A stretch of 64,000 bases of DNA, from positions 83,413 to 147,412 of the forward strand of contig JBAYJO010000002.1 in the NCBI GenBank assembly GCA_041665085.1, given 5' to 3'. Source of the DNA: Patescibacteria group bacterium (GTDB lineage Bacteria > Patescibacteriota > UBA1384 > JBAYJO01). Made by a program: the position numbers and the translations under genes. Every line of letters begins with the position of its first letter. Within the stretch, counting starts at the first letter, position 1. The notes beneath the pieces were generated by a model that was not told the origin of the DNA, ran no database searches, and saw only the letters and a list, made by a program, of their open reading frames with translations. Of this stretch, positions 1-60,068 are shown one piece after another.

Positions 1-685
1 AATCGAAGATCATTTTGATTATAATTTTGAGCTCGAAATGAGGCTGTCTGAAAGTGGTAAAGACGAGGAGTTAAAACAGATTCGCGCCATATCTGATATG
101 TGCAAATTTGTCTATGTTCGTCAAAAAGAACAAAAAGGGACAGGACACGCGATACTTTGCGCTAAAGATGTGGTCGGAAATGAACCTTTTGTAGTTCTTT
201 GGGGAGATGATTTTTTCTACACAAAAGGAAAAGTGCATTGTCAGCAACTGATTGATGTATACAATAAAAATGGCGGATCTGTCCTGTCGGTTGTAGAACG
301 AGCAGAAAAAGAAGATAGTTATAAATACGGCTTTATTAAACACGGCGAACAAAAAGATGATATAATAAAAGTCGAGGCATTAGTGGAAAAACCCGGTCCG
401 GAAGCTCAACCATCAAAACTCGCGACCATGTCCGGATTTCTGCTTTCTCCTCAAATTTTTGATATTTTGGAAAAACAAGAACCGGGAAAAGGGGGCGAAA
501 TCTGGCTTTCGGATGCTATAAATCGTCTCTGTCAAATTGATGATGTTTTTGCAAAAAAAATTGACGGTAAGCATTATGATTGCGGCAATAAGCTAAGCTA
601 TGTAATTGCAAATATCGAAATGGCTTTAGAAAGAGAAGAATTTAACGGAAAATTGGTGAATTATTTAAAATCATTGCAAAATTAA
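1..685 (+). CDS. galU: UTP--glucose-1-phosphate uridylyltransferase, 5' end outside window (partial)
   Basis: ORF 38..685 stays open in the same frame back to position 2. Motifs KGTGHAILCA, VVLWGDD and C-terminal EIWLSDAI...YDCGNKLSY are typical of GalU. The N-terminal GxGTRxLP region is missing, so the gene is truncated by the window edge. Confidence 0.7.
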   Translation, partial: IEDHFDYNFELEMRLSESGKDEELKQIRAISDMCKFVYVRQKEQKGTGHAILCAKDVVGNEPFVVLWGDDFFYTKGKVHCQQLIDVYNKNGGSVLSVVERAEKEDSYKYGFIKHGEQKDDIIKVEALVEKPGPEAQPSKLATMSGFLLSPQIFDILEKQEPGKGGEIWLSDAINRLCQIDDVFAKKIDGKHYDCGNKLSYVIANIEMALEREEFNGKLVNYLKSLQN

Positions 686-694
686 CAAATTAAT

Positions 695-778
695 TGAAGC
701 GTCCGCCTTCGCTTCGCCTTCGGCGAGCTACGGCGAGACTTCCTGTTCTCCGCTTCGCGGAAACAGGAGCGGAGGGAT
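695..778. repeat. GC-rich hairpin-containing repeat upstream of the lipoprotein gene
   Basis: About 60% GC in an AT-rich background. Stem TCCTGTT..AACAGGA, and the string 'gaagcgtccgc' is shared with the repeat array at 3919-3930. It ends in 'aggagcggaggg' just before the ATG. Confidence 0.4.
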
Positions 779-2134
779 ATGAAAAAATTAATTTATTCAG
801 GTTTAGCACTAGTAGCGATTATAGGATCGGGTTTACTACTTAGCGGATGCGGATCGACAACTACAACCACGACTCAAACTCCGACTATTTCAATGACAAG
901 ACCAACTGGAGATGAAGATTTTTTTAAAGGAGTTATCGCTGGTTTTAAAGAAAGTAATAGTAGTGCCACTATAAATTACAAAGAAGTTCCATTTGAAGAC
1001 TACGAACTTAACACTCTTAACACGCTGGCTGCTCAAACCGGTCCTGATATTTGGACAATTAGAAATGACTGGGTAAGCAAGCATTACGATAAATTATTGC
1101 CAATACCTGATTCTTTTTTCAAGGTTGATAAAAATGACAAATCAACAGCGGTAGATTATTTTAAGGCAAATTTCGGTGAAAATGTTGCGAATGATGTAAT
1201 TGTAAATAATAAAGTTTATGGCATCCCGCTGGCAATGGACACAATGGTAATTTATTACAACTCAAAGTTAATCAATGAAGCGATTGATGCTTACAATACG
1301 GTTGCCGATGAAAATAAAACTGAAGGAATTGATGGTATTCCTCAAACTTGGGATAGTTTTTTAAATTTTGTACCATACGCAACAAAAAGAGACGGCAGTA
1401 ATATTACCCAAGCCGGTATTGCAATGGGAACGGCAAATAATGTCAATCGAGCAACTGATATTTTATATCTTTTAATGCTTCAAAATGGCGCTCAAATGGT
1501 TTCGCCGGACAATCTAACAGCAACATTTAATTTAGACACAAAAACATCAGCTGGCGGATCAGCCAACCCCGGTCTTTCGGCGCTTGATTTTTATACCAGC
1601 TTTAGCAATAGTTCAAAACCAAATTATTCATGGAATAGCTCAATGCCGGATTCAATCCAGGCATTTGTTGACGGTAAGGTAGCGATGATTTTTGGATATG
1701 GTTATATGGCAAACACAATCAAACAGCTAGCTCCGGATCTTAACTACAAAACTGCAAAAGTACCGCAAATTTCAAAAACAGCAGAGCCGGTTAATTTTGC
1801 CAGCTACTGGGTAGAAACAGTTACCAAAAGCAGCAAAGGAAGTTCTCTGGTTTTTCAATTTTTAAAAAGCTATGCTAATAAAAATACAAGTGCTGATTAC
1901 GCAACCCTAAAAAACTCTTCTAATGCATACATGCAAAATTATGACAAAACAGACGAAAATCCAAAAAATTCTCAACCTGCCAATGTAAAAACATTTAACA
2001 AAGGCAAACAACCGGAAAAATTTGACTCATTAATTGTTGATATGATTTCAAATGCAACAAGTGGAACAAGCCACCAAAAAACACTTGATGAAACAGCAAC
2101 AAAAATTACAAATCTTTTAAGAGAAAAAGAATGA
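779..2134 (+). CDS. lipoprotein, extracellular solute-binding protein family (sugar ABC-type SBP-like)
   Basis: Signal peptide with lipobox LLLSGC, followed by a Thr-rich linker. The overall pattern is SBP_bac_1-like. No permease genes are adjacent. Confidence 0.5.
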   Translation: MKKLIYSGLALVAIIGSGLLLSGCGSTTTTTTQTPTISMTRPTGDEDFFKGVIAGFKESNSSATINYKEVPFEDYELNTLNTLAAQTGPDIWTIRNDWVSKHYDKLLPIPDSFFKVDKNDKSTAVDYFKANFGENVANDVIVNNKVYGIPLAMDTMVIYYNSKLINEAIDAYNTVADENKTEGIDGIPQTWDSFLNFVPYATKRDGSNITQAGIAMGTANNVNRATDILYLLMLQNGAQMVSPDNLTATFNLDTKTSAGGSANPGLSALDFYTSFSNSSKPNYSWNSSMPDSIQAFVDGKVAMIFGYGYMANTIKQLAPDLNYKTAKVPQISKTAEPVNFASYWVETVTKSSKGSSLVFQFLKSYANKNTSADYATLKNSSNAYMQNYDKTDENPKNSQPANVKTFNKGKQPEKFDSLIVDMISNATSGTSHQKTLDETATKITNLLREKE

Positions 2135-2409
2135 TTGGAAAAGTTTTTGCCGCCAATACAATTAATACCCAGTTCGGCAATGTTACAACTGTTCCGGAAT
2201 ACATTGCAGCTATTTACAGCTGGATACTTGGTTTTGGAGTAAGCATTGCAGTTGTCTGGATTATTGTTTCGGGATATATTTTAATGACCAGCCAAGGCAG
2301 TCCGGATGCAGTCAGCAATGCCAAAAAAAATATTATCGAGTCTTTGTCTGGTATTGCCCTTTTATTTTTAGCAAAATTAGTAATCGATAGCATATGGAAA
2401 CCATTTTAA
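2131..2409 (+). CDS. TrbC/VirB2-like T4SS pilin family protein (paralog 1 of 6)
   Basis: ATGA overlap with the upstream stop. Two hydrophobic helices are separated by a conserved loop G-S-P-D...AKK. The second helix starts with I..SLSGI, like its paralogs. Confidence 0.5.
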   Translation: MIGKVFAANTINTQFGNVTTVPEYIAAIYSWILGFGVSIAVVWIIVSGYILMTSQGSPDAVSNAKKNIIESLSGIALLFLAKLVIDSIWKPF

Positions 2410-2729
2410 ATTTTATAAAACTTAGTATTCCCCGAGCAATGGCCAGCGCTGCAACTGAAATTAACATTTCTTCTCCCGGCAAATGGACCACGGCTGAAGC
2501 ACTTATAAATGATATTTTTAGATATTTCACTCTGATCGCGGCATCAACATGTTTTATAATATTTGCAATCGGCGGGCTGCATTACATCTACAGCACAGGG
2601 AGTCCAGATCAAGTAAATAAAGCAAAAGATACAATGATCTGGTCAGCAATCGGATTTTTCGTTTTTGTTGCCGGATACGCAATTGTAAGATTAGTAGGAG
2701 GGTGGTTCGGATATGACAAAATTTTTTAA
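2394..2729 (+). CDS. TrbC/VirB2-like T4SS pilin family protein (paralog 2)
   Basis: Motif TGSPDQVNKAKDTMIWSAIGF lies between two TM helices. It overlaps its neighbours by 16-17 nt. Confidence 0.55.
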   Translation: METILNFIKLSIPRAMASAATEINISSPGKWTTAEALINDIFRYFTLIAASTCFIIFAIGGLHYIYSTGSPDQVNKAKDTMIWSAIGFFVFVAGYAIVRLVGGWFGYDKIF

Positions 2730-3048
2730 AAAAATAGTAAATAAAATTAATCCTAGAAATGTTTTGTATGCCTTGATTATTCCGGAAAGCTGGAAAACCA
2801 GTGCACCGATTAATCTTAGCGATTTAAATGATTTTGTTTCCGGCACAATTGTCGGCCTGGCTTTAAATTTAGCTGGCTTTGTAGCATTATTTTTTGTTTT
2901 TTTAGGTGGGTATATGTGGATAACTTCAAGCGGAGACACCGGAAAAATCGAACAGGGCAAAAAAACTTTAATTTACGCGCTAGCCGGTTTTGTTTTGGTT
3001 CTTGTTTCAGGTTCGCTTGTTAAAATTGTGGTTAATTTATTAACATAA
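2713..3048 (+). CDS. TrbC/VirB2-like T4SS pilin family protein (paralog 3)
   Basis: Motif SSGDTGKIEQGKKTLIYALAGF lies between two TM helices. Confidence 0.55.
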   Translation: MTKFFKKIVNKINPRNVLYALIIPESWKTSAPINLSDLNDFVSGTIVGLALNLAGFVALFFVFLGGYMWITSSGDTGKIEQGKKTLIYALAGFVLVLVSGSLVKIVVNLLT

Positions 3049-3122
3049 CTTTAAAAAAACTGTAAAATAATAATATAGATTGAAAAAAATAAAGGGTCGA
3101 TGAAAATTAAGAAAGGAGAGAT

Positions 3123-3518
3123 ATGAAATTAAGCAAACCGATAAAAATATTATTGACTGTATTGCCACTAATGATTGCTGCTTTAGTAATGTTCACACCT
3201 GTTGGATCATTGGCAGCTATAAGCGAACCTTATAAAGATACGACAAAATTAAATAACGTTGAAAACATTATCAGTTTTATATTAAAAGTTGTGATCACTA
3301 TTGCTGCGGTTGTGGTTTTTGTATTATTTGCTGTTGCCGGCATCACATATGTAACTGGTGCTGGTAATGAAGAACAAACCGGAAAAGCCAAGAAGATGAT
3401 GATTGATGCAGCAATTGGACTTGCAATTACGGTAGCCGCTTATGCACTAGGTAAATACGTTATTGTTCTTATTGTTGGAAAAGACGCAACAAGTAGCATT
3501 TCTAGTGTGACTTTCTAA
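3123..3518 (+). CDS. TrbC/VirB2-like T4SS pilin family protein (paralog 4)
   Basis: SD aaaggagag precedes the ATG. Signal peptide (..GSLAA), then a TM helix, loop GAGNEEQTGKAKKMMIDAAIGL, and a second TM helix. Confidence 0.6.
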   Translation: MKLSKPIKILLTVLPLMIAALVMFTPVGSLAAISEPYKDTTKLNNVENIISFILKVVITIAAVVVFVLFAVAGITYVTGAGNEEQTGKAKKMMIDAAIGLAITVAAYALGKYVIVLIVGKDATSSISSVTF

Positions 3519-3534
3519 AAACAGAGAAAAATAA

Positions 3535-3906
3535 ATGGAAGCCATTTTAAAGATTATTTTGAAATTCAGTGATATTTCTAAAGCTTTTGCTTATGATTTG
3601 AGCAATAACCCGGTTTTAAACACGGTGAATGGTTATGCCACAAATACTCCGAGCTCAATTACAGAATATATAAACAAAGCTTTAGAGATTATCATGATTA
3701 TTGGAACAACAGGTGTCTTTATTATGGCTTCCGTTGGCGCTTTTATCTTTTTAAATAGTGCGGGAGATCCTGAAGTTGCTAAAAAAGGTCAAAACACGAT
3801 GATAAATGCCGGCATAGGATTTGCTTTGCTTGTTGCAACATATGCAATCGTAGTTTGGTATCTGAAAATCACAACCGGCGCCAGTACAATTAATATTAAT
3901 ATTTAG
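3535..3906 (+). CDS. TrbC/VirB2-like T4SS pilin family protein (paralog 5)
   Basis: N-terminus MEAIL.. resembles paralog 2 (METIL..). Motif SAGDPEVAKKGQNTMINAGIGF lies between two TM helices. Confidence 0.55.
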   Translation: MEAILKIILKFSDISKAFAYDLSNNPVLNTVNGYATNTPSSITEYINKALEIIMIIGTTGVFIMASVGAFIFLNSAGDPEVAKKGQNTMINAGIGFALLVATYAIVVWYLKITTGASTININI

Positions 3907-4250
3907 TTGCTGTCATCGCGAAGCGTCCGCGCTGTGGCGATCTACATCCTGTCATCGCGAGGTCATCCGCGGCGATCTATGAAAAGATTGCGGAGCCTGT
4001 CCCGAAGTATTGAGGGATCTCGACTTCTCGTAATGACAAAGTAGAATACATTCGCAATGACAGATGGATCTGACTCCTCGAACGACAGTATTTTATCATT
4101 CCAGACTCGATCCAATATATTCCACCTTGTCATTCCAGACTGAAAGCGAAGCGCTTCAGATCTGGAATCCAGTACTATTTGATTATTATTTACTCTGGAT
4201 CCCAGCCTGCGCTGGGATGACAAAATGAAAAAGCTGGAATGACGGAGAAA
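3907..4250. repeat. Composite array of GC-rich hairpin repeats (GTCATYCCAG..CTGGRATGAC family and the 'tcatcgcgaggtcatccgcggcgatcta' subfamily)
   Basis: Multiple hairpins: 3912-3945, 3951-3980, 4128-4173 (ATTCCAGA..TCTGGAAT with a nested stem) and 4193-4221 (ATCCCAGC-ctgc-GCTGGGAT). The same units recur at 5611, 37217, 41237, 47614, 51217, 57198, 59836 and 62841. Confidence 0.7.
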
Positions 4251-4252
4251 AA

Positions 4253-4621
4253 ATGATGAAAATTTTAAAAAAAATTATTTTGCCAATTTACTCAATTATT
4301 TTTTTGTTTGCATTATTTATTCCAAATACTTCTCATGCATTAATCAAACTTCAAGATCCGATTAAAAATGCTTTCGGCTCATCAAAAGTACATACAACAG
4401 ATGATGCCATAAACATGGTTCTTTCGATTCTATTTTATTTGGGGGCAATTTCTGTTTTTATATATGGAGCGATCGGTGGTATAATGTATTTTTTTGCAGT
4501 TGGAAACCAAGATCAAGCCAAAAAAGCGCAGGCAATGATTTATTACGCAGCAATCGGTTTTGTAATGTTGGTATCTGCTTATGCTCTTGCCGAATGGGCA
4601 ATTAATTATGTGCTAAGTTAA
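4253..4621 (+). CDS. TrbC/VirB2-like T4SS pilin family protein (paralog 6)
   Basis: Signal peptide, then a TM helix, loop VGNQDQAKKAQAMIYYAAIGF, and a second TM helix. Confidence 0.55.
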   Translation: MMKILKKIILPIYSIIFLFALFIPNTSHALIKLQDPIKNAFGSSKVHTTDDAINMVLSILFYLGAISVFIYGAIGGIMYFFAVGNQDQAKKAQAMIYYAAIGFVMLVSAYALAEWAINYVLS

Positions 4622-4644
4622 AATATTATTTGATAGAAATGTTA

Positions 4645-4678
4645 AAGGGCAGCTCGCAAGCGAGCCGCCCTTTGGTAT
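4645..4678. terminator. Bidirectional rho-independent terminator between convergent genes
   Basis: GC stem aagggcagctcg-caag-cgagccgccctt followed by TTT on the plus strand. On the minus strand the same hairpin is followed by T-rich sequence. Confidence 0.5.
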
Positions 4679-4688
4679 GTCATGCCAC

Positions 4689-6482
4689 CTATTCAGCGAC
4701 ATCTTTGATGGGGATAAAGATCATCCCCGCCGCCACATCTGTGGCGGTGCCCGACCAGTAAGCGTACTTACCGATCGGGTAGTTCTGCCCGCCAATCTCG
4801 GGGCTTACCCCATATTGACTGGCGACAGTTGCGTTCTGGTTGAATGCAACCACCTTAACCCGACCGATCAAGCGGCCTAAACTGCCACTCTCAAGGGACG
4901 AGTCTCTATTTGAGTAGACAGCCAGAACCTGCCCGATCTGGGCATTTCGTACTCCACGAAGGAGGACGAAACTGTCGGTTTTGGCCGCTACCGGCACCTG
5001 TTTGGGCAGTCTGCTGTAGGCCTTCTTCAGGCCATCGGCAGCACTGGCCGCCCAGAATCGCCAAGCCTTATCTGTGGTGACCTGTTCGAAGTCACCGCCA
5101 GTGCCAATCGACACCTCGACACCGGGGATGCGCACATTGGTCTCCGATCCGGAGACAACCTCTTCACTGTACCCAGTAGCGCTTACTGGCTCAACCGCCA
5201 GTTCGCGATAACTGGTTGCGGAAACTGTACCCGTCACGCGGGCATAGAATTTCCGCACTCTGCGCGAGCCAGCGGTTTCGATCCTCTCAATACCACCAGC
5301 TATGCCGGATTCGGAATAGCCATCAACACACGATGCATTGACGGTTATTTCGCCGGTGGCGCCGAAGTACTTATCGTATTCCGGACGAGTGGCAGGATCA
5401 ACACCTTCGAGCTCTTGCTCGGCTCTGGCACGATCATATCGCTCATCGCGAGCAACGATCGTTATGCCCGAGCCTTTGAGCCCGTCATTGATCCAACCAG
5501 CCAGCTCGGCTGCTCCGCCGGTGAACTCTCTTCCTTCCATCTGATTGATGACAAGCACCAACCTGACTTCGGGAATTGCGGGTTTCTGTAGGGCAGTTGC
5601 AGAATTGCTCTGGATCCCAGCCTGCGCTGGGATGACAGAAGGGTCGATTGAGACTGTCGGAGGTGCCGGAAGATTAATCTCCGGCGGATTCTCCGTCAGC
5701 CTTTTGTCAAGATGGCCAATCCGATCCACGAAACGTGGGTGATCGGCGGCGATTTCTCCAAGCTTAGAAATCTCGCCCTCGCTCTCACTCAACAGTTTTA
5801 ACGAGCGTGCCATCGCCTTCGGATCACGGCCAGTGACAGCAAGAGATTCAAGACCGAATTGATCGGCCTGAAGCTCCTGCGTTCGGCTATACTTTGCACT
5901 TCTTACCATACTAAGCACGCCGGCCGCAACCTGAATAGTCTGGTTGGCCTCGGTTCCTCCGAGGATAGTGGACAGAAGAACATTGGAAGCCAATGCATCT
6001 GACCACGCTTTCTTAGAGTCGCCGTTTTGGATGTGGCCACATTCGTGGCCAACAACACCGGCAACATCATCCTGCCACCCAAGCGGGTCTTTCGACTTAA
6101 AGAACTCAATCAACCCTTCGGTCACAAAGATGTGTCCGCCTTGCGTGCCTGGCACGCAAAAAGCGTTCAGCACAGCCTTGCTGGCCTCGTCCCTCTGGTC
6201 TACAACCAGAATTTTGGGAACATCGGCCATTTTCTTTGCTTGAGCAATCGACGAAACGACCGCGTCTAGCATCGGATCGGAATTGGTGCGGTATTCACTC
6301 CGCACCTTAAGTGCCATGTCATCGCCGGCTAGGGCGACATTCTTGGCAGTAGGGCGATTTACGATCGCAGTCAGAGCCCCATTTAGGATGGCTCTTTTCC
6401 ACGAGTCGCTGTCTGCGTTTGCCACAGAAGCAAAAACAGACATCACAACTACCAGAGCTACTAGCGAAACAAAGCGTTTCAT
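4689..6482 (-). CDS. Secreted M48-family zinc metallopeptidase (HExxH = HECGH) fused to a C-terminal CsgG/LpoB-like domain; GC-rich foreign gene
   Basis: Signal peptide MKRFVSLVALVVVMSVFASVANA. VVGHECGHIQNGD is an M48 signature. The C-terminal half (LVLVINQMEGREFTGGAAELAGWINDGL...IVARDERYDRARAEQELEG) resembles CsgG-like lipoprotein domains. GC is about 57% against about 33% in surrounding DNA. A strong SD (aggagagg) lies upstream. Hairpin repeat 5611-5637 sits in-frame at the domain junction. Confidence 0.6.
   Translation of the reverse strand: MKRFVSLVALVVVMSVFASVANADSDSWKRAILNGALTAIVNRPTAKNVALAGDDMALKVRSEYRTNSDPMLDAVVSSIAQAKKMADVPKILVVDQRDEASKAVLNAFCVPGTQGGHIFVTEGLIEFFKSKDPLGWQDDVAGVVGHECGHIQNGDSKKAWSDALASNVLLSTILGGTEANQTIQVAAGVLSMVRSAKYSRTQELQADQFGLESLAVTGRDPKAMARSLKLLSESEGEISKLGEIAADHPRFVDRIGHLDKRLTENPPEINLPAPPTVSIDPSVIPAQAGIQSNSATALQKPAIPEVRLVLVINQMEGREFTGGAAELAGWINDGLKGSGITIVARDERYDRARAEQELEGVDPATRPEYDKYFGATGEITVNASCVDGYSESGIAGGIERIETAGSRRVRKFYARVTGTVSATSYRELAVEPVSATGYSEEVVSGSETNVRIPGVEVSIGTGGDFEQVTTDKAWRFWAASAADGLKKAYSRLPKQVPVAAKTDSFVLLRGVRNAQIGQVLAVYSNRDSSLESGSLGRLIGRVKVVAFNQNATVASQYGVSPEIGGQNYPIGKYAYWSGTATDVAAGMIFIPIKDVAE
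5611..5637. repeat. Hairpin repeat copy (ATCCCAGC-ctgc-GCTGGGAT) embedded in-frame within the CDS
   Basis: Identical to the units at 4193-4221 and 37217-37245. It encodes VIPAQAGIQ in the linker between the M48 and CsgG-like domains. Confidence 0.7.
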
Positions 6483-6631
6483 GATGTCCTCTCCTTTGAT
6501 ATTGAAATGTTAAGCCGCTAAGTTCGCGGCTTTCCGCTTTACTTATTACCCGTTACTATAGCATAAAAAGCCGCTTTTGTCAAGTTTGGTTAGGTAAAAA
6601 AAGTAGAATAACTAAAATATAGTAAAGGACT

Positions 6632-6650
6632 GTCCTTTACAATATTTTAG
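6632..6650 (-). terminator. Putative terminator hairpin for gene 6662..8113
   Basis: Perfect 9-bp stem GTAAAGGAC-tg-GTCCTTTAC. It is followed by a T-run on the minus strand, just after the stop at 6662. Confidence 0.4.
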
Positions 6651-6661
6651 TATATTTTAGT

Positions 6662-8113
6662 TTATTTTTTTATTTTATAGATCACGGCCAAGTCATCGCT
6701 GTAGATTTCTTGCCAATTGGAATTATTTTTAAGATATTCAACCAATTTATCATCTCTATCTTTATTTAATAGAAATAAATTAATATTATACTTTTTAATT
6801 AAATCTTCTCTTTTGTCAGCTTTTTTAACAATCGCACCATACCCGTCTCTGGCAAAATAATTATTTTTTTCAAACCAAGCTGACATCCGTCCATCAATAA
6901 ACACTTTTTCTTCCGGTAAATAATAAATTAAATATCCGCCCCAACCATAATTGTTAAATATTCTGTCATCTTGCATGCGATTTTGCCTGATAAAATCTAC
7001 CGCCTTATTTGGAAAGACAAAATTCATAGATGAAGCAAAAGATACCAACAGGAGAAAAATTATAATTTGAGCGAAAACCACCCATATAATTATTCTTTTT
7101 TTAAAGTTTTCAACAATACTAAATCCGGGCGATTCACTAAATTTATCCCATGCCAGCATTAAAATATATGGCGATAAAACTAAAAAAATCGGGGCAAATT
7201 TTTGCACTATAAGAGATAAGAAGGAGATGTAGACAACTGACGCCCATTCAAAAGGCAGTTTTTTAAAAACAACGATTGATAAAGACAAAACAATGACATA
7301 AGGAAAAACAAAGATAAATTCAGACTGGGGAAGCCATTCGCCAATTCCAGCAAGCGGGGACATAAAAGTATAAAAAACTTCGCGGAAAAGGTGGATTCCG
7401 TAAGGATTTATCAAAGTTGCAAGAAAAGAAAGTAGAAAAAATAAGCTAAATATAAATTTTTCTTTATTATTAAAAACCGAGTAATAGATATATTTTTTAA
7501 GAAAAAATTTTCCTTGGAATATTTTAATAAAAACCAGATAGAAAAAAATTGCCAAACCTACAAAAAACCCACCGTGTAAATTTGCCCAGAGAACGAAAAT
7601 AAATGGAATTGGAATTAAATAACGAATTTTCTTGAATTTGATATATCTGATTAGCAGGCTAAAAACAAGGGCTGTATTAAAAAAAGTAAAAGTTTGAGGT
7701 CTAAATCCCCAGAGATAAAGATTCAGATAAAGCGCCATAAAAATTATGAAACGCCAATATTTTTTAATATGTTTTTTCTCAAGAGGGATTAAAACGGCAG
7801 AAGTAGCTAAAATTGAGCTTAAAAGAACTAAAAACCAATGACCAATATGATTTTGTACCTCATACATAAAAACACCTGAAAGCCACTCATGAAAAACCCA
7901 AGGATATGACGACATGGTATATGACCAAATATCCGCGTGAGGTATAGTGTGATTTTGAACAATCCACTCCCCTCCTTTGACGATCCAAAAAAAATCTGTT
8001 TCTACCCTGTTAAAATTCGTGATAAATAAAGTAAGAGTTAGAACAAAAAATAACCCGATCACAAATAGGTTATTTTTTAATTTACTCTGTTTATTCACTA
8101 ATAACCCTTTCAA
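6662..8113 (-). CDS. Polytopic integral membrane protein, putative ArnT/PMT-like (GT39/GT83-type) glycosyltransferase
   Basis: About 12 predicted TM segments and a very hydrophobic composition. Its start overlaps the pilB stop by 23 nt. Confidence 0.35.
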   Translation of the reverse strand: MKGLLVNKQSKLKNNLFVIGLFFVLTLTLFITNFNRVETDFFWIVKGGEWIVQNHTIPHADIWSYTMSSYPWVFHEWLSGVFMYEVQNHIGHWFLVLLSSILATSAVLIPLEKKHIKKYWRFIIFMALYLNLYLWGFRPQTFTFFNTALVFSLLIRYIKFKKIRYLIPIPFIFVLWANLHGGFFVGLAIFFYLVFIKIFQGKFFLKKYIYYSVFNNKEKFIFSLFFLLSFLATLINPYGIHLFREVFYTFMSPLAGIGEWLPQSEFIFVFPYVIVLSLSIVVFKKLPFEWASVVYISFLSLIVQKFAPIFLVLSPYILMLAWDKFSESPGFSIVENFKKRIIIWVVFAQIIIFLLLVSFASSMNFVFPNKAVDFIRQNRMQDDRIFNNYGWGGYLIYYLPEEKVFIDGRMSAWFEKNNYFARDGYGAIVKKADKREDLIKKYNINLFLLNKDRDDKLVEYLKNNSNWQEIYSDDLAVIYKIKK

Positions 8114-9623
8114 CCTCCTCTTTGGTAGTTAACCCGAGTTTGACCTTTTCCATACCATCTTCGGTCATGGTTTGCATACCATCAGCTTTTGCTTTTTCAA
8201 TGACATCAGCAAGTGGCGCTTTATTGTAAATTAATTTTTCTAAATCAGGAGTTGGCTTTAAAGTTTCTGAAATTACAATTCTGCCTTTGTAACCTGTAAA
8301 ATTACACGCGTCGCATCCTTTGCCGCCGCATTCTTGGTGGACTTTTCTTACAAGTCTTTGAGCAATAATAAGATTAATTGATCCTTGAAGTAAGAATGGT
8401 TCAAGCCCCATATCAACCAAACGAAGATAAGCAGCAGGAGCATTATTGGTGTGAAGAGTCGAGAGAACAAGATGACCGGTCATGGCCGAACGAATCGCAA
8501 TATCAGCAGTATCAAGATCTCGAATTTCACCAACCATAATAATATCCGGATCTTGTCTTAAAATAGATCGTAACCCTGAAGAAAATGTCATCCCTCCCTT
8601 AACTTCTTCTCCACTGACCTGAACCTGTTCTATTCCTGATAAACGATATTCAATTGGATTTTCAAGAGTAATAATTTTTACTCCTGGTTTGTTTAATAAA
8701 CTTAAAAGAGCATAAAGAGTGGTAGTTTTACCTGAACCTGTTGGACCGGTGTTCAGAATCATACCATTTGGCTTTTTGATGGCATCTAAAATATTTTTTT
8801 TAGACATTTCGGAAAAACCCAGATCATCCAAATTTAAAAAATTCCCATTTTGAGAAAGAAGTCTCATAACAATAGCTTCGCCATAATTAGTTGGAAGAGT
8901 CGATACTCTGACATCAACCTGCTCTCCACCAATGTTGTAGGAAAAGCGACCATCTTGCGGTTCTTTTTTTTGGTCCATCTTTAAACCTGATAGGAATTTA
9001 ATTCGGGAATTTAGTGCTTGATAAGCTGAATTGGGCAAATTAACAATATCCTGAAGTACTCCGTCAATTCTATATCTAATGCGGCAATCTGTTTCAGTTG
9101 GCTCGACATGAATATCTGATGCTTGAGTTTTTTTGGCTCCGGTAAACACAACATCAACTATTTGAGTAGTGGAGACATTTTTTATTTTCTCCCTTAAATC
9201 CATTAAATTTTGAATTTCTTGCTCAAAATTAGTAGTTGAGGAGCTGGTATTTAGAGCTAATTTTGCCTTTTCTTCATCAAGTGTAATCTTTTCGTACAAA
9301 GATAAAGCATAATTAAAACTAGTTTCTGAAACAGCGGATATGCTTGCTTCAATATTTTTTTCTTTAGCAATTTGCGAAAGATAATTAAAAAGTTCGGGAT
9401 TTTCAGGACGCGAGGTTGCAAATCTTACTCGCCTACCAAGCCTGATATAGGGAATAATAAAATTTAATTTTACTTGATCAAGCGGCAAAATTTTCATAAC
9501 ATCAGGAGCAATTGGGTAATTTACTAAATTGATATATGGAATATTAAAAATAGATGCAGACTCCCGCGCCTGTTGTTCCTCTTGGGTGCGTTTAATATTT
9601 TCTAGAGTTTTATCGATATCCAT
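8091..9623 (-). CDS. pilB: Type IV pilus / type II secretion assembly ATPase (PilB/GspE family)
   Basis: Walker A GPTGSGKTTT, GspE-type N-terminal domain, and a C-terminal Cys cluster (CGGKGCDACNFTGYKGR). Confidence 0.8.
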   Translation of the reverse strand: MDIDKTLENIKRTQEEQQARESASIFNIPYINLVNYPIAPDVMKILPLDQVKLNFIIPYIRLGRRVRFATSRPENPELFNYLSQIAKEKNIEASISAVSETSFNYALSLYEKITLDEEKAKLALNTSSSTTNFEQEIQNLMDLREKIKNVSTTQIVDVVFTGAKKTQASDIHVEPTETDCRIRYRIDGVLQDIVNLPNSAYQALNSRIKFLSGLKMDQKKEPQDGRFSYNIGGEQVDVRVSTLPTNYGEAIVMRLLSQNGNFLNLDDLGFSEMSKKNILDAIKKPNGMILNTGPTGSGKTTTLYALLSLLNKPGVKIITLENPIEYRLSGIEQVQVSGEEVKGGMTFSSGLRSILRQDPDIIMVGEIRDLDTADIAIRSAMTGHLVLSTLHTNNAPAAYLRLVDMGLEPFLLQGSINLIIAQRLVRKVHQECGGKGCDACNFTGYKGRIVISETLKPTPDLEKLIYNKAPLADVIEKAKADGMQTMTEDGMEKVKLGLTTKEEVERVISE

Positions 9624-9688
9624 AATTATTTTAAATTAAAAAAGAGTTTCTAATTTAATTATAGCATAAAATTACAAGGAAGTGAGTC

Positions 9689-9717
9689 ATTATAGCCCTT
9701 CGATAAACTCTCTTCAA
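9689..9717 (-). promoter_or_regulatory. Sigma70-like promoter for pilB (TTGAAG-N17-TATAAT on the minus strand)
   Basis: On the minus strand: TTGAAGagagtttatcgaagggcTATAAT, about 65 nt upstream of the pilB ATG. Confidence 0.45.
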
Positions 9718-9827
9718 GTCGAGCCTGAGGGCTCTTCCTTCAGAGTCGTTGACAGGGCATTCGACTTCTAGCTTCATGGTCGGAGACCATGAGCGCTCCG
9801 TCCACTTTGAGTGGACAGGAAGTCGTA

Positions 9828-9916
9828 TGGCGGAGAGGGTGGGATTCGGACCCACGATCCCTTGCGGGATACCGGTTTTCGAGACCAGCGCACTAGACCA
9901 ACTATGCGACCTCTCC
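9828..9916 (-). tRNA. tRNA-Ser (anticodon CGA) with long variable arm and encoded CCA
   Basis: Reverse complement is GGAGAGGTCGCATAGTTGGTCTAGTGCGCTGGTCTCGAAAACCGGTATCCCGCAAGGGATCGTGGGTCCGAATCCCACCCTCTCCGCCA. It has a 7-bp acceptor stem, anticodon loop CTCGAAA and a 16-nt variable arm. The T-loop reads TCCGAAT, so position 55 is C. Confidence 0.75.
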
Positions 9917-9963
9917 CTGTTGGATAGCTTGATTATAAAATATAGACTAGAGATAAACAATAA

Positions 9964-10416
9964 TTAACTTTGAACCTTAATAATAATTTTGCGATCTTGA
10001 CCCTCGCCGGTCGATTCACTTGTAATACCATCAATTGGCTGGCAAAGAGTGTGAACTATTTTTCTTTCCGAGGGATTTAAAGATTCAAATTCAACATTTT
10101 TTTGATCTTTTTTAATTTGAGTTACTGCTTTTTTAACCATATCTTCAAGCATACTTTTTCGTTTGTTTTTATAATCTGCAACATCAAGATTGATATAAAC
10201 AAAGTCCTCTTGGTTTTTATTGGCAAGTAGACGAACAACATGCTCTAAAGCATATAGATTTTGACCATTATAGCCGATCATTAAAGATGGGTCACTGCTT
10301 ATGATATTTATTTTAACTCCATCTCCTTCTTCAAGCACCATTACTTCAGCATTGTATTTAAGAAGATCTATAATATCTTTGGTAATTTGTTTGATGTCTT
10401 TAATTTTATTTTGCAT
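9964..10416 (-). CDS. jag: KH/R3H-domain RNA-binding protein Jag (KhpB)
   Basis: Conserved position after yidC. A KH-like region followed by an R3H-like C-terminus. The internal ATG (MQNKIK..) was chosen because the longer ORF overlaps yidC by 53 nt. Confidence 0.6.
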   Translation of the reverse strand: MQNKIKDIKQITKDIIDLLKYNAEVMVLEEGDGVKINIISSDPSLMIGYNGQNLYALEHVVRLLANKNQEDFVYINLDVADYKNKRKSMLEDMVKKAVTQIKKDQKNVEFESLNPSERKIVHTLCQPIDGITSESTGEGQDRKIIIKVQS

Positions 10417-10423
10417 TTTTCCT

Positions 10424-11167
10424 TTAATTATTTTTTTGTCTGATTTTAACAGAAACACTCGATTTATCAGAACCATTATTATTCATGATTAATTTTTGCT
10501 GAACAATGGTGAATATTGTGGTAATAACCCAGTAAAGGGCGAGGGACGAAGGAAGCCTTAAGGCAATAATTATAGTCATAAGCGGCATAATATACATAGT
10601 TTGATTCTGCATTACATCTTGGAAATCCGATTGTTTTGTTTTGTGTTTTGGAGGCATAATCTGTCTGGCTTGGATAAACTGCAAAAGTCCGGCAATAACC
10701 GGTAAAATATAAAATTTATCAGGTAGACTTAAATCGAGCCACAAAAATCCGGTTGTAAAAGTGGAAAGATGAGGGGTAAAAGAGTAAAGCAGCTCGTCGT
10801 ATCTTGCTGTTGTAAGACCGGTTCTGAAAACATAATATAAAACAAAAAAAACAGGAATTTGAATCAAAAGAGGAAGACAACCGCTTAATGGATTAATTTT
10901 ATTGATCTTATAAAACTCCATGATTTGCTTGGATTGTTCTTGTTTGTCAGGATATTTTTTCTTAATTGCCTCAAGTTCCGGGTTTAAATCTCTAATTCTT
11001 TTTTGAGCCTGAATCGCGTGTTTTGAAGAAGGAATTAGGGCCAATCTGATCAACATGGTAAGAATAATAATTGCCACTCCGATGCTGTGACCGGGAATTA
11101 TAAATATTAAAAAAGCCAAGATATTAAACAATGGCTGATATAAAATTACTTTGAGAAAATTTTTCAT
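10424..11167 (-). CDS. yidC: Membrane protein insertase YidC (short Gram-positive/CPR-type)
   Basis: Five TM segments in a YidC/Oxa1-like pattern. It sits between yidD and jag. Confidence 0.75.
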   Translation of the reverse strand: MKNFLKVILYQPLFNILAFLIFIIPGHSIGVAIIILTMLIRLALIPSSKHAIQAQKRIRDLNPELEAIKKKYPDKQEQSKQIMEFYKINKINPLSGCLPLLIQIPVFFVLYYVFRTGLTTARYDELLYSFTPHLSTFTTGFLWLDLSLPDKFYILPVIAGLLQFIQARQIMPPKHKTKQSDFQDVMQNQTMYIMPLMTIIIALRLPSSLALYWVITTIFTIVQQKLIMNNNGSDKSSVSVKIRQKNN

Positions 11168-11171
11168 ATAA

Positions 11172-11408
11172 TTATTTTAAAGGGTCGTTTCCACCACTTT
11201 GGAAAGGATTGCAACGACTGATTCTCTTGACTCCTAAATATGATCCCTTAATTACTCCGTATTTATTAATTGCTTGGTAAGTATATTCTGAACAGGTCGG
11301 GTGGAAACGGCATACTCCATGTTTGTAAAGATGTCTTAATGGGCCGTGATCCAACGATAAGGTGTGTTGATATAAACGAATTAGAAATAAAGCGATTTTT
11401 TTAAACAT
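11172..11408 (-). CDS. yidD: Membrane protein insertion efficiency factor YidD
   Basis: Motif [22 protein letters not shown]. Confidence 0.8.
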
Positions 11409-11751
11409 TCTTCTTTAATATTTTGGCATGAATCATTAATTCTTCCAAATCTTGGTGAATTTCTGAAAATGGTATCTCTTTTTTAAAATGCTTCAAACTG
11501 ATTACAATATTTACCTTCCCAATCATTCTATCATAAAGAGACGAGATAATACTCTTTATTCTTCTTTTGGCGAGATTTCTAACTGTCGCGCGATTTGAGA
11601 TCTTCTTGCTTACAATAATAGCAAATCGAGAGATATCATTGACATTGGGAGCAATGCGCAAAATCATAAATCTGCCTCGGTAAACTCGGCCATTTTTAAA
11701 GATATAATCAAAATCTTTTTGTTTGGAAATGCGAGTTTTTTTTGCCAACAT
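11401..11751 (-). CDS. rnpA: Ribonuclease P protein component
   Basis: Basic 116-aa protein located between rpmH and yidD, with an RnpA-like sequence. Confidence 0.8.
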
Positions 11752-11755
11752 AAAG

Positions 11756-11890
11756 TTACACCGTTAATTTATGGCGACCTTTTAACCTTCTAAGTTTAAC
11801 AACTCTACGACCGCCTTCTGAAGACATTCTGGCAAAAAAACCATGAATCTTCACTCGATGATTCTTTTTTGGCTGATAAGTTCTTTTCAT
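11756..11890 (-). CDS. rpmH: 50S ribosomal protein L34
   Basis: Not in the ORF track because it is below the size cut-off. Reverse-strand translation is [44 protein letters not shown]. Confidence 0.85.
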
Positions 11891-11989
11891 TTCAAACTTT
11901 CATTTAGTTAATACATACTATAATGTTGATACAGAATAATTATACCCCTAAAAATACCGTTTGGTCAACCCTATTGTGCATTTTCTTGC

Positions 11990-12003
11990 TTGCTGTGGAT
12001 AAC
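11990..12003. promoter_or_regulatory. DnaA box (TGTGGATAA) upstream of dnaA
   Basis: 'ctgtggataac' matches the consensus TTATCCACA on the complementary strand. Confidence 0.5.
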
Positions 12004-12056
12004 TTTGTTATATTTAACTCGGACCTGATTAATACTTAGATTAAGGTAGGAGGAAG

Positions 12057-13421
12057 ATGGATTTGGAAAAAATTTGGAATACAGCACTGGGAGAACTTGA
12101 AGTTGTCCTGTCAAAGGCAAACTATATCACTTGGTTTAAAGACACTTTTATTGTCTCAAGTGAAGACGGAAAAATAGTGATTGGAGTTCCTAATGGATTT
12201 GCCGAAGAATGGCTAAGTAAAAAATTCCACCCTCAAATTTTTGATACTTTAAAAAAAACTATTTCCGATTTGAAAGAAATAGAATATAAAATTATCCCTA
12301 ATAAAAATCAATTCGAAGCCAAAACATCTGTTAGTATTGATCGAGATGAAATTGAAAATAAACGAACAAGCGTTTCAAATACTAAATCAACTGACAATAA
12401 TCTAAATCCAAAATATGTTTTTGAAAATTTTATCGTAAGCAACACCAACCGCCTTGCTCAAGCCAGTTCAATTGCAGTGGCCAATAACCCCGGCATGGTT
12501 TACAATCCACTCTTTATTTACGGAGGGGTAGGACTAGGGAAAACCCATCTTTTGCATGGGATCGGACACGAAATATTAAGAAAGTGGCCGGAAAAGAAAG
12601 TTGTTTATCTTTCCTGTGAAAAATTTACAAATGAATTTATCCACTCGATTTCCACAGGTAAAATTAATGAGTTTAAAAAGACTTATCGAAATGTTGATGT
12701 CCTGCTTGTTGATGATATTCAATTCCTTTCTAATAAAGAAGGTTTTCAAGAAGAATTTTTTCATACATTTAATTCCCTGCACCAGACTAATCGCCAGATA
12801 GTAATGACTGCTGATAGAATGCCAAAAGCCATTCCTGCTCTTGAGGAAAGATTATCTTCAAGATTTGGTTGGGGTTTAATTGCCGATATCCAATCTCCTA
12901 ATTTTGAAACTCGAATGGCCATCCTGCAAGCTAAGTGTAAAGAAAAAGGACACATTCTTGATGAAGAAGTTTTGAAATATATTGCACAAAATGTAAACTC
13001 AAATATCAGAGAACTTGAGGGTTGTTTGAACCGATTGATTACTTCTTCTGAACTGACTAATGTGGAAATTAATCTAAAAAACGCTGAAAGTATTTTAGCG
13101 GATTTTGTAAACAGCCCTTTAAATGCCAATATTTCAATTAATAAGGTATTTAAAATTATCAGTGATTATTATGAAATAAAAATCGAAGAAATTATGAGCG
13201 AAAAGAGAAATAAAGAATTAGTCAGGCCAAGACAAGTAATTATGTATATATTAAGAAATGAATTAAACTTATCTTATCCAAAAATTGCAAAAGAGTTGAA
13301 CGGTAAAGATCACACAACCATTATGTATGGAGTTTCAAAAATTAAAAAAGAATTAGCAAGAGACGAAACTTTGAAAAAAGACTTAGTTAATATAAAAGAA
13401 AAGCTTTACTCTATTGCCTAG
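12057..13421 (+). CDS. dnaA: Chromosomal replication initiator protein DnaA
   Basis: SD aggaggaag upstream. AAA+ Walker A GGVGLGKTHL and a C-terminal DNA-binding domain. Confidence 0.9.
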   Translation: MDLEKIWNTALGELEVVLSKANYITWFKDTFIVSSEDGKIVIGVPNGFAEEWLSKKFHPQIFDTLKKTISDLKEIEYKIIPNKNQFEAKTSVSIDRDEIENKRTSVSNTKSTDNNLNPKYVFENFIVSNTNRLAQASSIAVANNPGMVYNPLFIYGGVGLGKTHLLHGIGHEILRKWPEKKVVYLSCEKFTNEFIHSISTGKINEFKKTYRNVDVLLVDDIQFLSNKEGFQEEFFHTFNSLHQTNRQIVMTADRMPKAIPALEERLSSRFGWGLIADIQSPNFETRMAILQAKCKEKGHILDEEVLKYIAQNVNSNIRELEGCLNRLITSSELTNVEINLKNAESILADFVNSPLNANISINKVFKIISDYYEIKIEEIMSEKRNKELVRPRQVIMYILRNELNLSYPKIAKELNGKDHTTIMYGVSKIKKELARDETLKKDLVNIKEKLYSIA

Positions 13422-25137: not shown

Positions 25138-25914
25138 ATGAAAACAGTTACTCTGGTATTGTTGGTTTGTTTGTCATTGGTGTCGGTGGCTCATGCGGAC
25201 AAAGTCTTGATGAAAGCCGATCTGAACAAGGACGGCAAACAGGAGAGTGTCATCAAGACAGATTACTCATATGGAAGTGGCGGGAGCTTCTATTTCATTT
25301 ATGTCAAAGCAGGATCTAAGGATCTGTTTTACCAAGGGTTCTGCTTGGGCAACGGCGATTTCCTTGTCCGCGATGTCAATCCTCGTTATCCGGGCAAGGA
25401 GATTGTGGTGTGGTATAAGTCTGATGAGAAGCCCTACCGCTTCGAAATCACTTGGTGGGGTTGGGATAAGACAATTGGGCACTACTCAATGTATAGTGCG
25501 GTGCTTTCGAAGAAGACTACTTGGCAAGCGGCGCTGAAGGAGTATGAAGGAAAAGAAGAGAAGATCCCGTTTTGCCAGATGATTGCTCGAGCTAGAATCT
25601 TGCTCTCATCGTTGAAGAATAAGGATATTTCGGCTGTTGATCGTGCGCTGGGTCCTGGTATGGAAGGAACTTACGAGAAGTATAACGATCAGATGTGGCC
25701 GGAACCGGGCTCGACTGCCTTTCAAAACCAGTTTTTCTGTAAGTTGATAGATTGGCCTCAAGGTAAAGGCAACGACTGGTTTTGTAGTGTTGTTTTCGAG
25801 GGGATAGAACCTAGAAAAGGATGGGATAGCGGCTATTCTATACAGATAAACTACATATCCGAGTCCCACCATCAATATCCTCGCGACTGGGAACCTTGGA
25901 CACCGGGAGGATAA
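25138..25914 (+). CDS. Secreted hypothetical protein, GC-rich (about 47%) foreign-composition gene on the opposite strand within the operon
   Basis: Signal peptide MKTVTLVLLVCLSLVSVAHA. Own promoter-like TTGATT-N17-TATAAA and SD ggaggag. No recognisable domains. Confidence 0.55.
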   Translation: MKTVTLVLLVCLSLVSVAHADKVLMKADLNKDGKQESVIKTDYSYGSGGSFYFIYVKAGSKDLFYQGFCLGNGDFLVRDVNPRYPGKEIVVWYKSDEKPYRFEITWWGWDKTIGHYSMYSAVLSKKTTWQAALKEYEGKEEKIPFCQMIARARILLSSLKNKDISAVDRALGPGMEGTYEKYNDQMWPEPGSTAFQNQFFCKLIDWPQGKGNDWFCSVVFEGIEPRKGWDSGYSIQINYISESHHQYPRDWEPWTPGG

Positions 25915-37216: not shown

Positions 37217-37266
37217 CTCTGGATCCCAGCCTGCGCTGGGATGACAAAAGAAGTTGGGATGACAAC
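37217..37266. repeat. Hairpin repeat copy (ATCCCAGC-ctgc-GCTGGGAT plus partial second unit) between the two paralogous secreted-protein genes
   Basis: ctctggatcccagcctgcgctgggatgac is identical to 4193-4221 and 5609-5637. Confidence 0.7.
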
Positions 37267-41236: not shown

Positions 41237-41363
41237 CGTCATCCCAGACCTGCCTGGCGGCAAGGCAGGCTTGATCTGGGATCCATCTATCTAAATTTGT
41301 ATTATAAACTCTGGATTCCAGCTTTCCGCCTAGGCTCGGCGAGACTGGTCGCTGGAATGACAA
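41237..41363. repeat. Composite hairpin repeat (GTCATCCCAGAC..GATCTGGGAT and CTGGATTCCAGC..GCTGGAATGACA)
   Basis: The first unit is identical to 59836-59880. The loop of the second unit (tttccgcctaggctcggcgagactggtcgct) occurs reverse-complemented at 51251-51290. Confidence 0.75.
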
Positions 41364-47596: not shown

Positions 47597-47662
47597 AGTT
47601 TGTAAAGTTGATGACCAGATTTGTCATTCCAGACAGGAAGTGGAACGCTCCTGATCTGGAAT
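47574..47662. repeat. 9-mer 'ATAAAGT' periodic repeat array followed by a GTCATTCCAGAC..CTGGAATC hairpin
   Basis: ccATAAAGTtaGAAAGTttATAAAGTttGTAAAGTtgatgacc starts inside the last codons of polA. It is followed by the hairpin ATTCCAG-N22-CTGGAAT. Confidence 0.65.
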
Positions 47663-47740
47663 CTATATTATAATTTTATAATTTTTTTTATTTTCTGAAA
47701 AAGGTCAAAATAAATAATGTTTTAAATATGGAAAGGGCGG

Positions 47741-47776: not shown

Positions 47777-48343
47777 TTACCGCTTGCGACGCCACGTGGC
47801 GCCTGCGAGTCCGATGAAGCCGGTTAGGAGTGTTACGATGTTCCCCGGCTCCGGAACAGGATTGGCGAAGATGTCGAGGGTATATGGCTTGTCTGATGGA
47901 ATACTGATGCTCCCTGCTTTCGTCAGATCAAGCCATATAGTCGTTGATCCTTGATCTATCTCGCCATAAACACTGAATTGCGGCCATAGGTCGCCTTCTT
48001 GGTAGAAGTAGACTGGTTGCCAATTGTATGTCTTCCAAGACAGGATGAACTGTGACGGAGCGCTTGGAATTGGCGTGATTGACATTGTCTCTGTGAATGG
48101 CGCCGTCGATCCGTAATGGATCTGTGCGCCGAATCCACCTTCGAGTGAAGCGTTCACGCTTCCCGTGATAGGAAGTATGTGAAATCCGTAGGCGTAGTCG
48201 TTACCACCAACGGTAACTTTGCCGGATGAACAGTTGATCGTGAAATCGACTGCCCAGCCCTTGTAGGAAGGTTCGCCAGCGAAAGCCGGCATGGAAATGA
48301 GACTGATGAGAAGAACGACGAGAACTGTGAATCTGGTTTTCAA
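47777..48343 (-). CDS. Secreted PEP-CTERM-anchored protein, GC-rich (about 52%) foreign-composition gene
   Basis: Signal peptide MKTRFTVLVVLLISLISMPAFA. The C-terminus VPEPGNIVTLLTGFIGLAGATWRRKR is a PEP motif, a TM helix and an Arg/Lys cluster, the canonical PEP-CTERM/exosortase sorting signal. Confidence 0.6.
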   Translation of the reverse strand: MKTRFTVLVVLLISLISMPAFAGEPSYKGWAVDFTINCSSGKVTVGGNDYAYGFHILPITGSVNASLEGGFGAQIHYGSTAPFTETMSITPIPSAPSQFILSWKTYNWQPVYFYQEGDLWPQFSVYGEIDQGSTTIWLDLTKAGSISIPSDKPYTLDIFANPVPEPGNIVTLLTGFIGLAGATWRRKR

Positions 48344-51216: not shown

Positions 51217-51344
51217 TTTGTCATTCCAGACTCCTATTTCGTCATCCTAGCGACCAGTCTCGCCGAGCCTAGGCGGAAAGCTGGGATCCAGAGAGTTTGT
51301 TTGTTTTTTATACTTCTAGATTCCAGCCTGCGCTGGAATGACAC
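51217..51344. repeat. Composite hairpin repeat (reverse-orientation copy of the 41237-41363 element, plus ATTCCAGC-ctgc-GCTGGAAT)
   Basis: tttgtcattccagac..., then agcgaccagtctcgccgagcctaggcggaaagct (reverse complement of 41321-41354), then ttccagcctgcgctggaatgacacc. Confidence 0.75.
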
Positions 51345-51361
51345 CAATTCTATAATGACTT

Positions 51362-59835: not shown

Positions 59836-59924
59836 TGTCATCCCAGACCTGCCTGGCGGCAAGGCAGGCTTGATCTGGGATCCAGAAACTATCTACCTAG
59901 ATTCCAGTTTTCACTGGAATGACA
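59836..59924. repeat. Composite hairpin repeat (copy of the 41237 unit plus ATTCCAG-ttttca-CTGGAAT)
   Basis: tgtcatcccagacctgcctggcggcaaggcaggcttgatctgggatcc is identical to 41238-41285. Confidence 0.75.
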
Positions 59925-60068
59925 AATGAAATTGGTATAATAAAAATGTGTAGTCTTAATCAATCATTCTACTTTTTGCTCTAGCTATTATGATGTATAA
60001 TAAATATATCAAATCTCAAGCGGTTTATTCGTAGAGGTAAAGTTGTATTTGCCTATTAAGGAGGGTGT

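Follow-up and report, generated by a model that had tools for sequence, protein, structure and literature searches.

An in-frame Ssn-related hairpin repeat in the linker of an exported M48/CsgG-like fusion protein from Patescibacteria

The gene studied here lies in a 64,000-nt stretch of contig JBAYJO010000002.1 (assembly GCA_041665085.1) of a Patescibacteria group bacterium, referred to below as the window. It occupies positions 4689-6482 on the minus strand, where an open reading frame (ORF) with an ATG start encodes a 597-aa protein consisting of a predicted secreted M48 peptidase, a linker, and a C-terminal domain with a CsgG-like fold. A 30-nt hairpin repeat is found in frame in the linker, where it is read as VIPAQAGIQ, and identical copies lie between genes elsewhere in the window. 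Comparison with related loci suggests that the fusion of the two domains is older than the repeat, and the most fitting reading of the repeat copy is that it was inserted in frame into the linker and is tolerated there. We consider it probable that the gene is resident and vertically inherited, that the repeat arrived later at a site which is unstable, and that the GC excess of the gene is long-standing. The locus would then provide a natural example of a hairpin repeat of this type being translated inside a protein.

Orthologues and the age of the fusion

An exhaustive HMMER search with the C-terminal half of the protein, covering 1.84 billion representative proteins, returned four relatives of the C-terminal domain, and in this search no relatives were found outside the clade. 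P0008 (587 aa, 45% identical) and P0009 (610 aa, 39%) have the M48 domain and the C-terminal domain and align over the whole length; P0010 (299 aa) and P0011 (308 aa) consist of the C-terminal domain alone, and P0010 has its own signal peptide. The full protein found just distant M48/TPR proteins in a word-indexed protein search, a pattern scan of genome contigs with generic M48 patterns gave only unrelated M48 genes (none aligned beyond aa 314), and a first metagenome scan with protein alignment had no matches.

Three of the four relatives lie at a pilin/PilB locus in related contigs; P0011, the remaining one, comes from a contig of 1.8 kb whose context is uninformative. The window and two of the related loci, L001 and L003, share the order PilB ATPase, membrane protein of about 478 aa, M48/CsgG-like gene and five to six type IV secretion system (T4SS)-type pilins, followed by a solute-binding protein, an NTP-transferase and HSP20. 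At a further locus, L084, a stand-alone C-domain protein fills the slot of the M48/CsgG-like gene. The repeat family, including the published sequence pattern discussed below, is absent from L001, L003 and L084 (stretches of 22, 6 and 13 kb). As the syntenic P0008 and P0009 share the two-domain architecture without the repeat, the repeat did not create the fusion, and the shared fusion and synteny point to a fusion that existed before these lineages split. The first-pass annotation of the window had proposed a repeat-mediated gene fusion as one possibility, and had itself named fused homologues lacking the repeat family as what would count against this, which is essentially what was found. Its further question, whether the two halves occur as separate genes elsewhere, has a divided answer: they are fused in P0008 and P0009, whereas L084 has just the C-domain at this locus.

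RecA of the contig is 100% identical to an NCBI protein labelled 'Patescibacteria group bacterium'; the next closest RecA, at 87%, is encoded on the L001 contig, which also bears P0008. Identity between the window and L001 is 73% for PilB, 75% for the NTP-transferase, 58% for the solute-binding protein and 45-67% for the pilins, and falls to 47% for the membrane protein and 41% for the M48/CsgG-like gene. These values suggest that the gene is a fast-evolving surface component of the pilin/PilB locus. A rare and uncharacterised exported protein of M48/CsgG-like type would thereby be a fixed component of this locus in one Patescibacteria clade.

Several features of the locus were observed alongside. 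The locus (window 1-13421; L001, L003, L084, and L219, a stretch of the window's own contig lying to its left) adjoins the origin region rpmH-rnpA-yidD-yidC-jag-dnaA. The 478-aa polytopic protein, which has no family match, is present at the three loci that have the M48 domain and absent in L084. At 7741-8965 of L219, two genes of the 23S_rRNA_IVP type (four-helix bundle) flank HSP20; neither L001 nor L084 has them there.

The repeat copy in the linker

The interdomain linker comprises aa 265-304 (5571-5690, minus strand). It is predicted to be disordered, with a predicted local distance difference test (pLDDT) score of 24-28 and no secondary structure in the full-length AlphaFold2 model, and its length varies among orthologues, as seen from alignment gaps. 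The repeat copy lies inside it at 5608-5637 (minus strand) and is read as (S)VIPAQAGIQ(S), the nonapeptide being aa 283-291, as had been noted at first pass. Three identical copies of the 30-nt block CTCTGGATCCCAGCCTGCGCTGGGATGACA occur, at 4193-4222, 5608-5637 and 37217-37246. In the gene it surrounds the hairpin ATCCCAGC-CTGC-GCTGGGAT at 5614-5633, with an 8-bp stem (5614-5621 paired with 5626-5633), which as DNA has a folding energy of -10.8 kcal/mol (z -3.8). An intragenic attenuator, one of the roles suggested earlier, is not borne out, the hairpin having no U-tract and an RNA fold z of only -2.4.

In an alignment to P0008 the residues IPAQAGIQ are extra in the window protein. When the 30 nt are subtracted, the segment that runs from LPAP up to the first beta-strand measures 25 aa, compared with 26 aa in P0008. 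The copy therefore has the features expected of an in-frame palindromic insertion: the ORF is intact, the element is absent from orthologues, its length is a multiple of three, and it sits in a tolerant segment. After the split from the sampled relatives, one 30-nt copy would have entered the linker and been translated as VIPAQAGIQ. The insertion probably survived because the element is exactly 10 codons long, is free of stops in five of the six frames (as read from the sequence), and entered a disordered segment. An in-frame insertion of a miniature inverted-repeat transposable element (MITE) had been among the earlier suggestions; a secondary in-frame linker insertion fits what is seen, but the MITE label is wrong for an element of 28-30 nt that belongs to another family.

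A similar case is the Rickettsia palindromic elements (RPE), which Ogata and colleagues are said to have described in 2000 as inserted in frame in protein-coding genes. Compared by description only, both are palindromic repeats inside an ORF which keep the frame, are absent from orthologues and occupy a segment expected to be tolerant. RPE are 100-150 bp long with families of their own, whereas the window element is 30 nt and of a different family.

That family is the Ssn-related motifs (SRMs), and within it the type of the Neisseria Transformation Sequence (NTS) and dRS3. A BLAST search of the consensus 30-mer against PLSDB matched a Neisseria gonorrhoeae chromosome and Sphingobium replicons, which led to the dRS3/NTS literature; when the literature was searched with the repeat and its peptide as text, no paper came up. 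The NTS is the 28-nt sequence CGTCATTCCCGCGMAVGCGGGAATCYRG, and the wider class is that of the SRMs (PMC11893778, Nat Commun 2025). The published SRM pattern, HGTCWYN(0-2)YYVSBRHN(0-5)WNVSBRGN(0-2)RNCYNB, is matched at five sites in the window compared with 0.01 in 100 shuffles, and the hairpin pattern with up to two mismatches occurs five times compared with 0.04 expected. In the gene the match is at 5610-5637 (minus strand), TGTCATCCCAGCGCAGGCTGGGATCCAG; relative to the NTS, two stem pairs are changed in a compensatory manner and the first base is different. The element shares with the NTS, SRMs and dRS3 a 28-nt semi-palindrome, oriented flanks (GTCAT... and ...ATCCAG) and a C directly 3' of the palindrome, and its copies are likewise dispersed, mostly intergenic and found beside surface-protein genes. 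The strict dRS3 form (ATTCCC-N8-GGGAAT) is not seen; the element is ATCCCAGC-N4-GCTGGGAT and belongs to the wider SRM family only. Unlike the NTS, which is intragenic in just 2% of cases and clusters near membrane-protein genes (PMC11893778), the window copy sits in a coding sequence (CDS) and is translated. The SRM family is hereby extended to Patescibacteria, a phylum unmentioned in that work (PMC11893778).

In Neisseria the motif is recognised by SsnA, a 94-aa GIY-YIG protein that cuts single-stranded DNA just upstream of it and so lowers transformation by motif-bearing DNA. More widely, SRMs are the substrates of GIY-YIG single-strand DNA nucleases of bacteria, and ssn genes usually have their motifs on both sides (PMC11893778). 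Single-domain GIY-YIG ORFs of 95-105 aa also adjoin the 26-nt core of the window element, TGGATYCCAGCCTGCGCTGGRATGAC, in five unrelated metagenome loci (L100, L130, L148, L173 and L181), a further likeness to SRMs. This core is found exactly in at least 120 metagenome stretches of 34-72% GC (median 56%) and in seven IMG/VR stretches. Its sole free stem pair covaries among 149 metagenome copies (T-A in 102, C-G in 45, mixed in 2, or 147 to 2), and inverted doublets are frequent among them. Metagenome copies fall at ORF ends, mostly in GC-rich contigs, so that an open-frame test of genic copies gave no information. Short hairpin repeats that often form inverted doublets are also a feature of the REP/REPIN elements with their RAYT partner, but the window element has no GTAG-type REP head, the protein with which published work associates it is a GIY-YIG nuclease, and the window ORFs that were scanned include no RAYT or other transposase, Y1 included. 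It was also striking that the core is identical letter for letter over contigs of 34-72% GC with unrelated flanks (L087-L213).

In the window the family comprises, besides the copy in the gene, two further exact copies, two more SRM matches and about eight looser relatives. The exact copies are a sister SRM at 4195-4222 (minus strand), which ends a nest of related palindromes between two pilin genes, and an intergenic one at 37219-37246 (minus strand). The looser relatives, with ends GTCATYCC... and ...GGRATCYA and different or longer inner palindromes, are all intergenic (3907-4252, the nest; 41238; 47621; 51220-51346; 59837-59927; 62841-62930). The gene's copy is thus the sole non-intergenic member of the family in the window. 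That the repeat recurs at intergenic sites had been stated at first pass, although "many" is generous for the window.

Some details of these copies were noted separately. The 346-nt pilin spacer at 3907-4252 holds at least eight SRM/dRS3-like palindromes with ends TGTCAT...GATCYA, the last of which is the exact 30-mer; the equivalent pilin spacers of L001 are short and repeat-free. A perfect 48-nt duplicate, GTCATCCCAGACCTGCCTGGCGGCAAGGCAGGCTTGATCTGGGATCCA, at 41238-41285 and 59837-59884 has SRM-type ends and a long inner palindrome and is missed by the published pattern; similar long-loop forms are at 4127-4169 and 47621-47663. The five SRMs (4195, 5610, 37219, 51316 and 59897) have one orientation, the minus strand carrying GTCAT whichever side of dnaA they lie on, which with n=5 is not significant.

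The deletion allele, the GC excess and competing explanations

A contig from another sample (JGI 3300037810, Ga0376277_0021343; L221), found via the exact sequence of the neighbouring solute-binding protein, is 99.95% identical to window positions 1-8613, with three single-nucleotide differences in 8.6 kb, all outside the gene. Across the gene it is identical apart from the loss of 50 nt (5595-5644, from blastn and alignment against the window). The missing segment consists of the repeat with 13 and 7 flanking bases and lies between AGGG(C/T) microhomologies. Its loss shifts the frame, leaving an M48 ORF of 315 aa that ends in about 40 out-of-frame residues, and an overlapping ORF of 283-290 aa for the C-terminal domain, which has no signal peptide. 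Where L221 and L218 cover further SRM copies, these show no polymorphism. Hairpin-promoted replication slippage between the AGGG repeats would be a likely way to delete the 50 nt, and would leave a product with the M48 domain only, plus a C-domain ORF that is not exported. As the loss splits the gene, the site behaves as an indel hotspot, in keeping with the earlier suggestion of a recombination site in the sense that the spot is unstable or recombinogenic. If so, this near-identical pair of strains illustrates that SRM-type repeats can be tolerated in coding linkers and yet are able to inactivate genes.

The pair could also be read the other way round, with the two ORFs of L221 as the ancestral state and the window gene as their fusion through an inserted 50-nt repeat-bearing segment, since this segment is the sole difference between the alleles. 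We regard this as very unlikely, and read the L221 allele as a very recent deletion, because the distant and syntenic P0008 and P0009 are continuous fusions without the repeat, because the C-domain ORF of L221, unlike the stand-alone P0010, carries no export signal, and because both halves are otherwise undamaged, as fits a deletion of recent date. The out-of-frame tail of the M48 ORF also speaks against an ancestral gene. Moreover, outside the repeat the segment has 20 bases, whose residues DPS and SNSAT find counterparts in SPS..N..T when aligned to P0008. The recent acquisition of the gene from a GC-richer, repeat-carrying organism, or an assembly chimera with one, would for its part account for a GC content at third codon positions (GC3) 5.4 sd above that of the other ORFs, for the enrichment of both G-ending and C-ending codons, and for the prevalence of the 26-nt core in GC-rich metagenome contigs; three other ORFs of the window, at GC3 0.53-0.56, could be seen in the same light. 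It is nevertheless very improbable, given that the nearest relatives carry GC-elevated orthologues at the same position, that three of the only four C-domain relatives lie at the pilin/PilB locus, and that the junctions to the AT-rich flanks are the same in three assemblies.

The assemblies were compared as follows. The exact 597-aa protein is encoded on a 150-kb ENA contig (ERZ27249449 k141_130032), of which the window is 83431-147430, and on a 2.4-kb Logan contig (SRR6484324). These contigs, from two assemblers, match the window at 100% identity over the gene and on into its AT-rich flanks, and L221 confirms both flanks. As a second assembly by a different assembler spans gene and repeat, and a contig built at k=141 cannot mis-join at a 30-nt repeat, mis-assembly is excluded: a mis-join at the repeat is not credible, and the chimera that had been considered at first pass can be set aside.

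The compositional contrast itself is real, although the 57% and 33% GC given at first pass were measured as 54.5% for the gene and 34% on average for the other 48 ORFs of the window. By codon position the gene has GC fractions of 0.61, 0.46 and 0.57, the other ORFs have a mean GC3 of 0.26 (sd 0.057), and the rise in GC matches the CDS boundaries. Gene and neighbour GC3 are 0.57 and 0.25 in the window, 0.38 and 0.28 in L001, 0.59 and 0.41 in L003, and 0.44 and 0.33 in L084. Since all four syntenic genes are GC-elevated, a recent single import, as implied by the earlier term "compositionally foreign", does not explain the excess, which is a long-standing property of the gene family in AT-rich genomes. 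Expression-linked codon bias was considered as a cause of the high GC3 and rejected, as the ribosomal protein genes S15 and S20 have a GC3 of about 0.2 and as the gene is enriched in G-ending and C-ending codons alike. The excess might stem from repeated replacement of alleles, from GC-biased conversion at a surface locus prone to recombination, or from selection. This persistent excess is a compositional puzzle, and the part of the present results most worth following.

A functional role of the intragenic hairpin has also to be weighed. It could be an Ssn target that limits transformation-driven gene replacement, or a slippage-prone switch that turns the C-terminal domain on and off in a manner like phase variation. 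In Neisseria, SRM/NTS elements cluster near genes for variable membrane proteins, and DNA that carries them recombines less (PMC11893778). At the locus studied here a second SRM with the palindrome nest lies 1.4 kb off, so that the two SRMs enclose one pilin gene together with the gene's C-domain half; no neighbour has diverged as far as this locus, and the on/off polymorphism falls at exactly the repeat site. However, the 76 kb searched contain no Ssn homologue, a deletion of 50 nt cannot revert as a repeat-tract switch can, and just two alleles are known, which leaves such a role improbable. A wider proposal, that continual allele exchange by natural transformation (through GC-biased conversion or repeated replacement) keeps a few fast-evolving genes for exported proteins, among them the M48/CsgG-like gene, GC-rich over deep divergence in AT-rich genomes while SRM hairpins in and around the gene gate replacement via Ssn and switch the C-terminal domain off by deletion, seems to us distinctly improbable.

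Vertical inheritance with a later insertion remains the account we favour, and several points weigh against it. No in-frame empty-site allele was seen, so that the insertion is deduced from orthologues which are 37-45% identical and whose linkers align poorly, and no target-site duplication is visible at the repeat. We know of no mechanism by which SRMs are mobilised. Neither the 64-kb window nor 12 kb of flanking sequence, 76 kb in total, contains an Ssn gene (GIY-YIG, cd10448), a difference also from the SRMs of Neisseria. The 50-nt deletion comes from one JGI contig and lacks support at the level of reads. This explanation leaves the persistent GC excess unaccounted for, and the fold assignment of the C-terminal domain described below is taken from modest models (pLDDT 61-68, template modelling (TM) scores of 0.2-0.3).

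Domains of the protein and expression signals

From its sequence, MKRFVSLVALVVVMSVFASVANA/DS, the N-terminus looks like a Sec signal peptide of aa 1-23 (6414-6482, minus strand) that ends in ANA/DS and has no lipobox, and a helix is modelled by AlphaFold2 at aa 2-20. The peptidase M48 domain spans aa 70-261 (5700-6275, minus strand; Pfam PF01435, 81 bits with a cut-off of 20.3, E 1e-22). Its HECGH motif is at aa 146-150 (nt 6033-6047), and H146, E147, H150, E203, A206 and D207 are invariant across the three full-length proteins; E203, in the ELQAD motif (QELQAD), is the putative third zinc ligand. The periplasmic M48 proteases BepA, LoiP and YcaL are similar in having an exported M48 domain, HExxH with a distal Glu, and a non-catalytic partner domain. 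The window protein differs from them in that this partner is CsgG/FlgT-like rather than TPR, in lacking a lipobox, and in staying far under the NCBIfam equivalog cut-offs (LoiP 47 compared with 365, BepA 36 with 570, HtpX at most 28 with at least 245). Patescibacteria, the host phylum, are not known to have an outer membrane.

The C-terminal domain comprises aa 305-597 (4692-5570, minus strand), the part which stands alone in P0010 and P0011. The last 300 aa of the protein have no match in Pfam or NCBIfam, nor in the PDB by sequence or profile, and Pfam CsgG (PF03783) does not match the window protein even at E 10; one of the five family members matches it at E 0.0013, which is under the threshold. 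An AlphaFold model built from the five-sequence alignment (pLDDT 68) was compared with the PDB by Foldseek. It matched FlgT (3w1e, E 8e-6, over both subdomains), CsgG (4uv2, E 8e-5), LptE (about 1e-4, with a TM score of 0.6 when normalised to LptE), HpaA and the LPHT ring 8z5n; the matches have a probability of about 1 and E of 1e-5 to 1e-3, yet TM scores of just 0.2-0.3. The resemblance to the CsgG/FlgT/LptE/HpaA group lies in an alpha/beta sandwich in the first part of the domain. The window protein departs from this group in having no Pfam CsgG match and in not being a lipoprotein, its signal peptide lacking the L-x-x-C lipobox cysteine seen in CsgG and LpoB lipoproteins. A "CsgG-like fold" label, short of membership of the CsgG family, therefore seems reasonable, and the earlier description of a secreted M48 protease joined to a CsgG-like domain holds in this form. 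Elsewhere the CsgG-like fold builds rings or binds envelope structures, and the C-terminal domain may hold the exported protease at the envelope or the pilus machinery.

Upstream of the gene there is a promoter-like site, TTGACA-17-TATAGT with TG (6555-6583, minus strand; 11 of 12 matches in a consensus scan), and 3' of this a strong putative Shine-Dalgarno sequence, AAGGAGAGG (6488-6496, minus strand). Between the gene and the convergent pilin gene a GC-rich inverted repeat (4644-4673) is a candidate bidirectional terminator from its sequence, for which a terminator scan gave no call.

The three other ORFs of the window with high GC3 are at 25138-25914 (plus strand), 47777-48343 (minus strand) and 52497-52949 (plus strand). 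The 258-aa product of the first and the 188-aa product of the second have signal peptides, and the latter has a PEP-CTERM-like tail (VPEP...RRKR, with weak Pfam and NCBIfam matches), a sorting signal that is unexpected in Patescibacteria. L001 has a comparable GC-rich island with an ORF at 1688-2179 (GC3 0.66).

Rfam models gave just chance-level matches over the gene, and a tRNA-Ser was their sole match in the window at the gathering threshold. This tRNA-Ser(CGA), at 9828-9916 (minus strand), is the sole tRNA within the 64 kb and overlaps a spurious 101-aa ORF.

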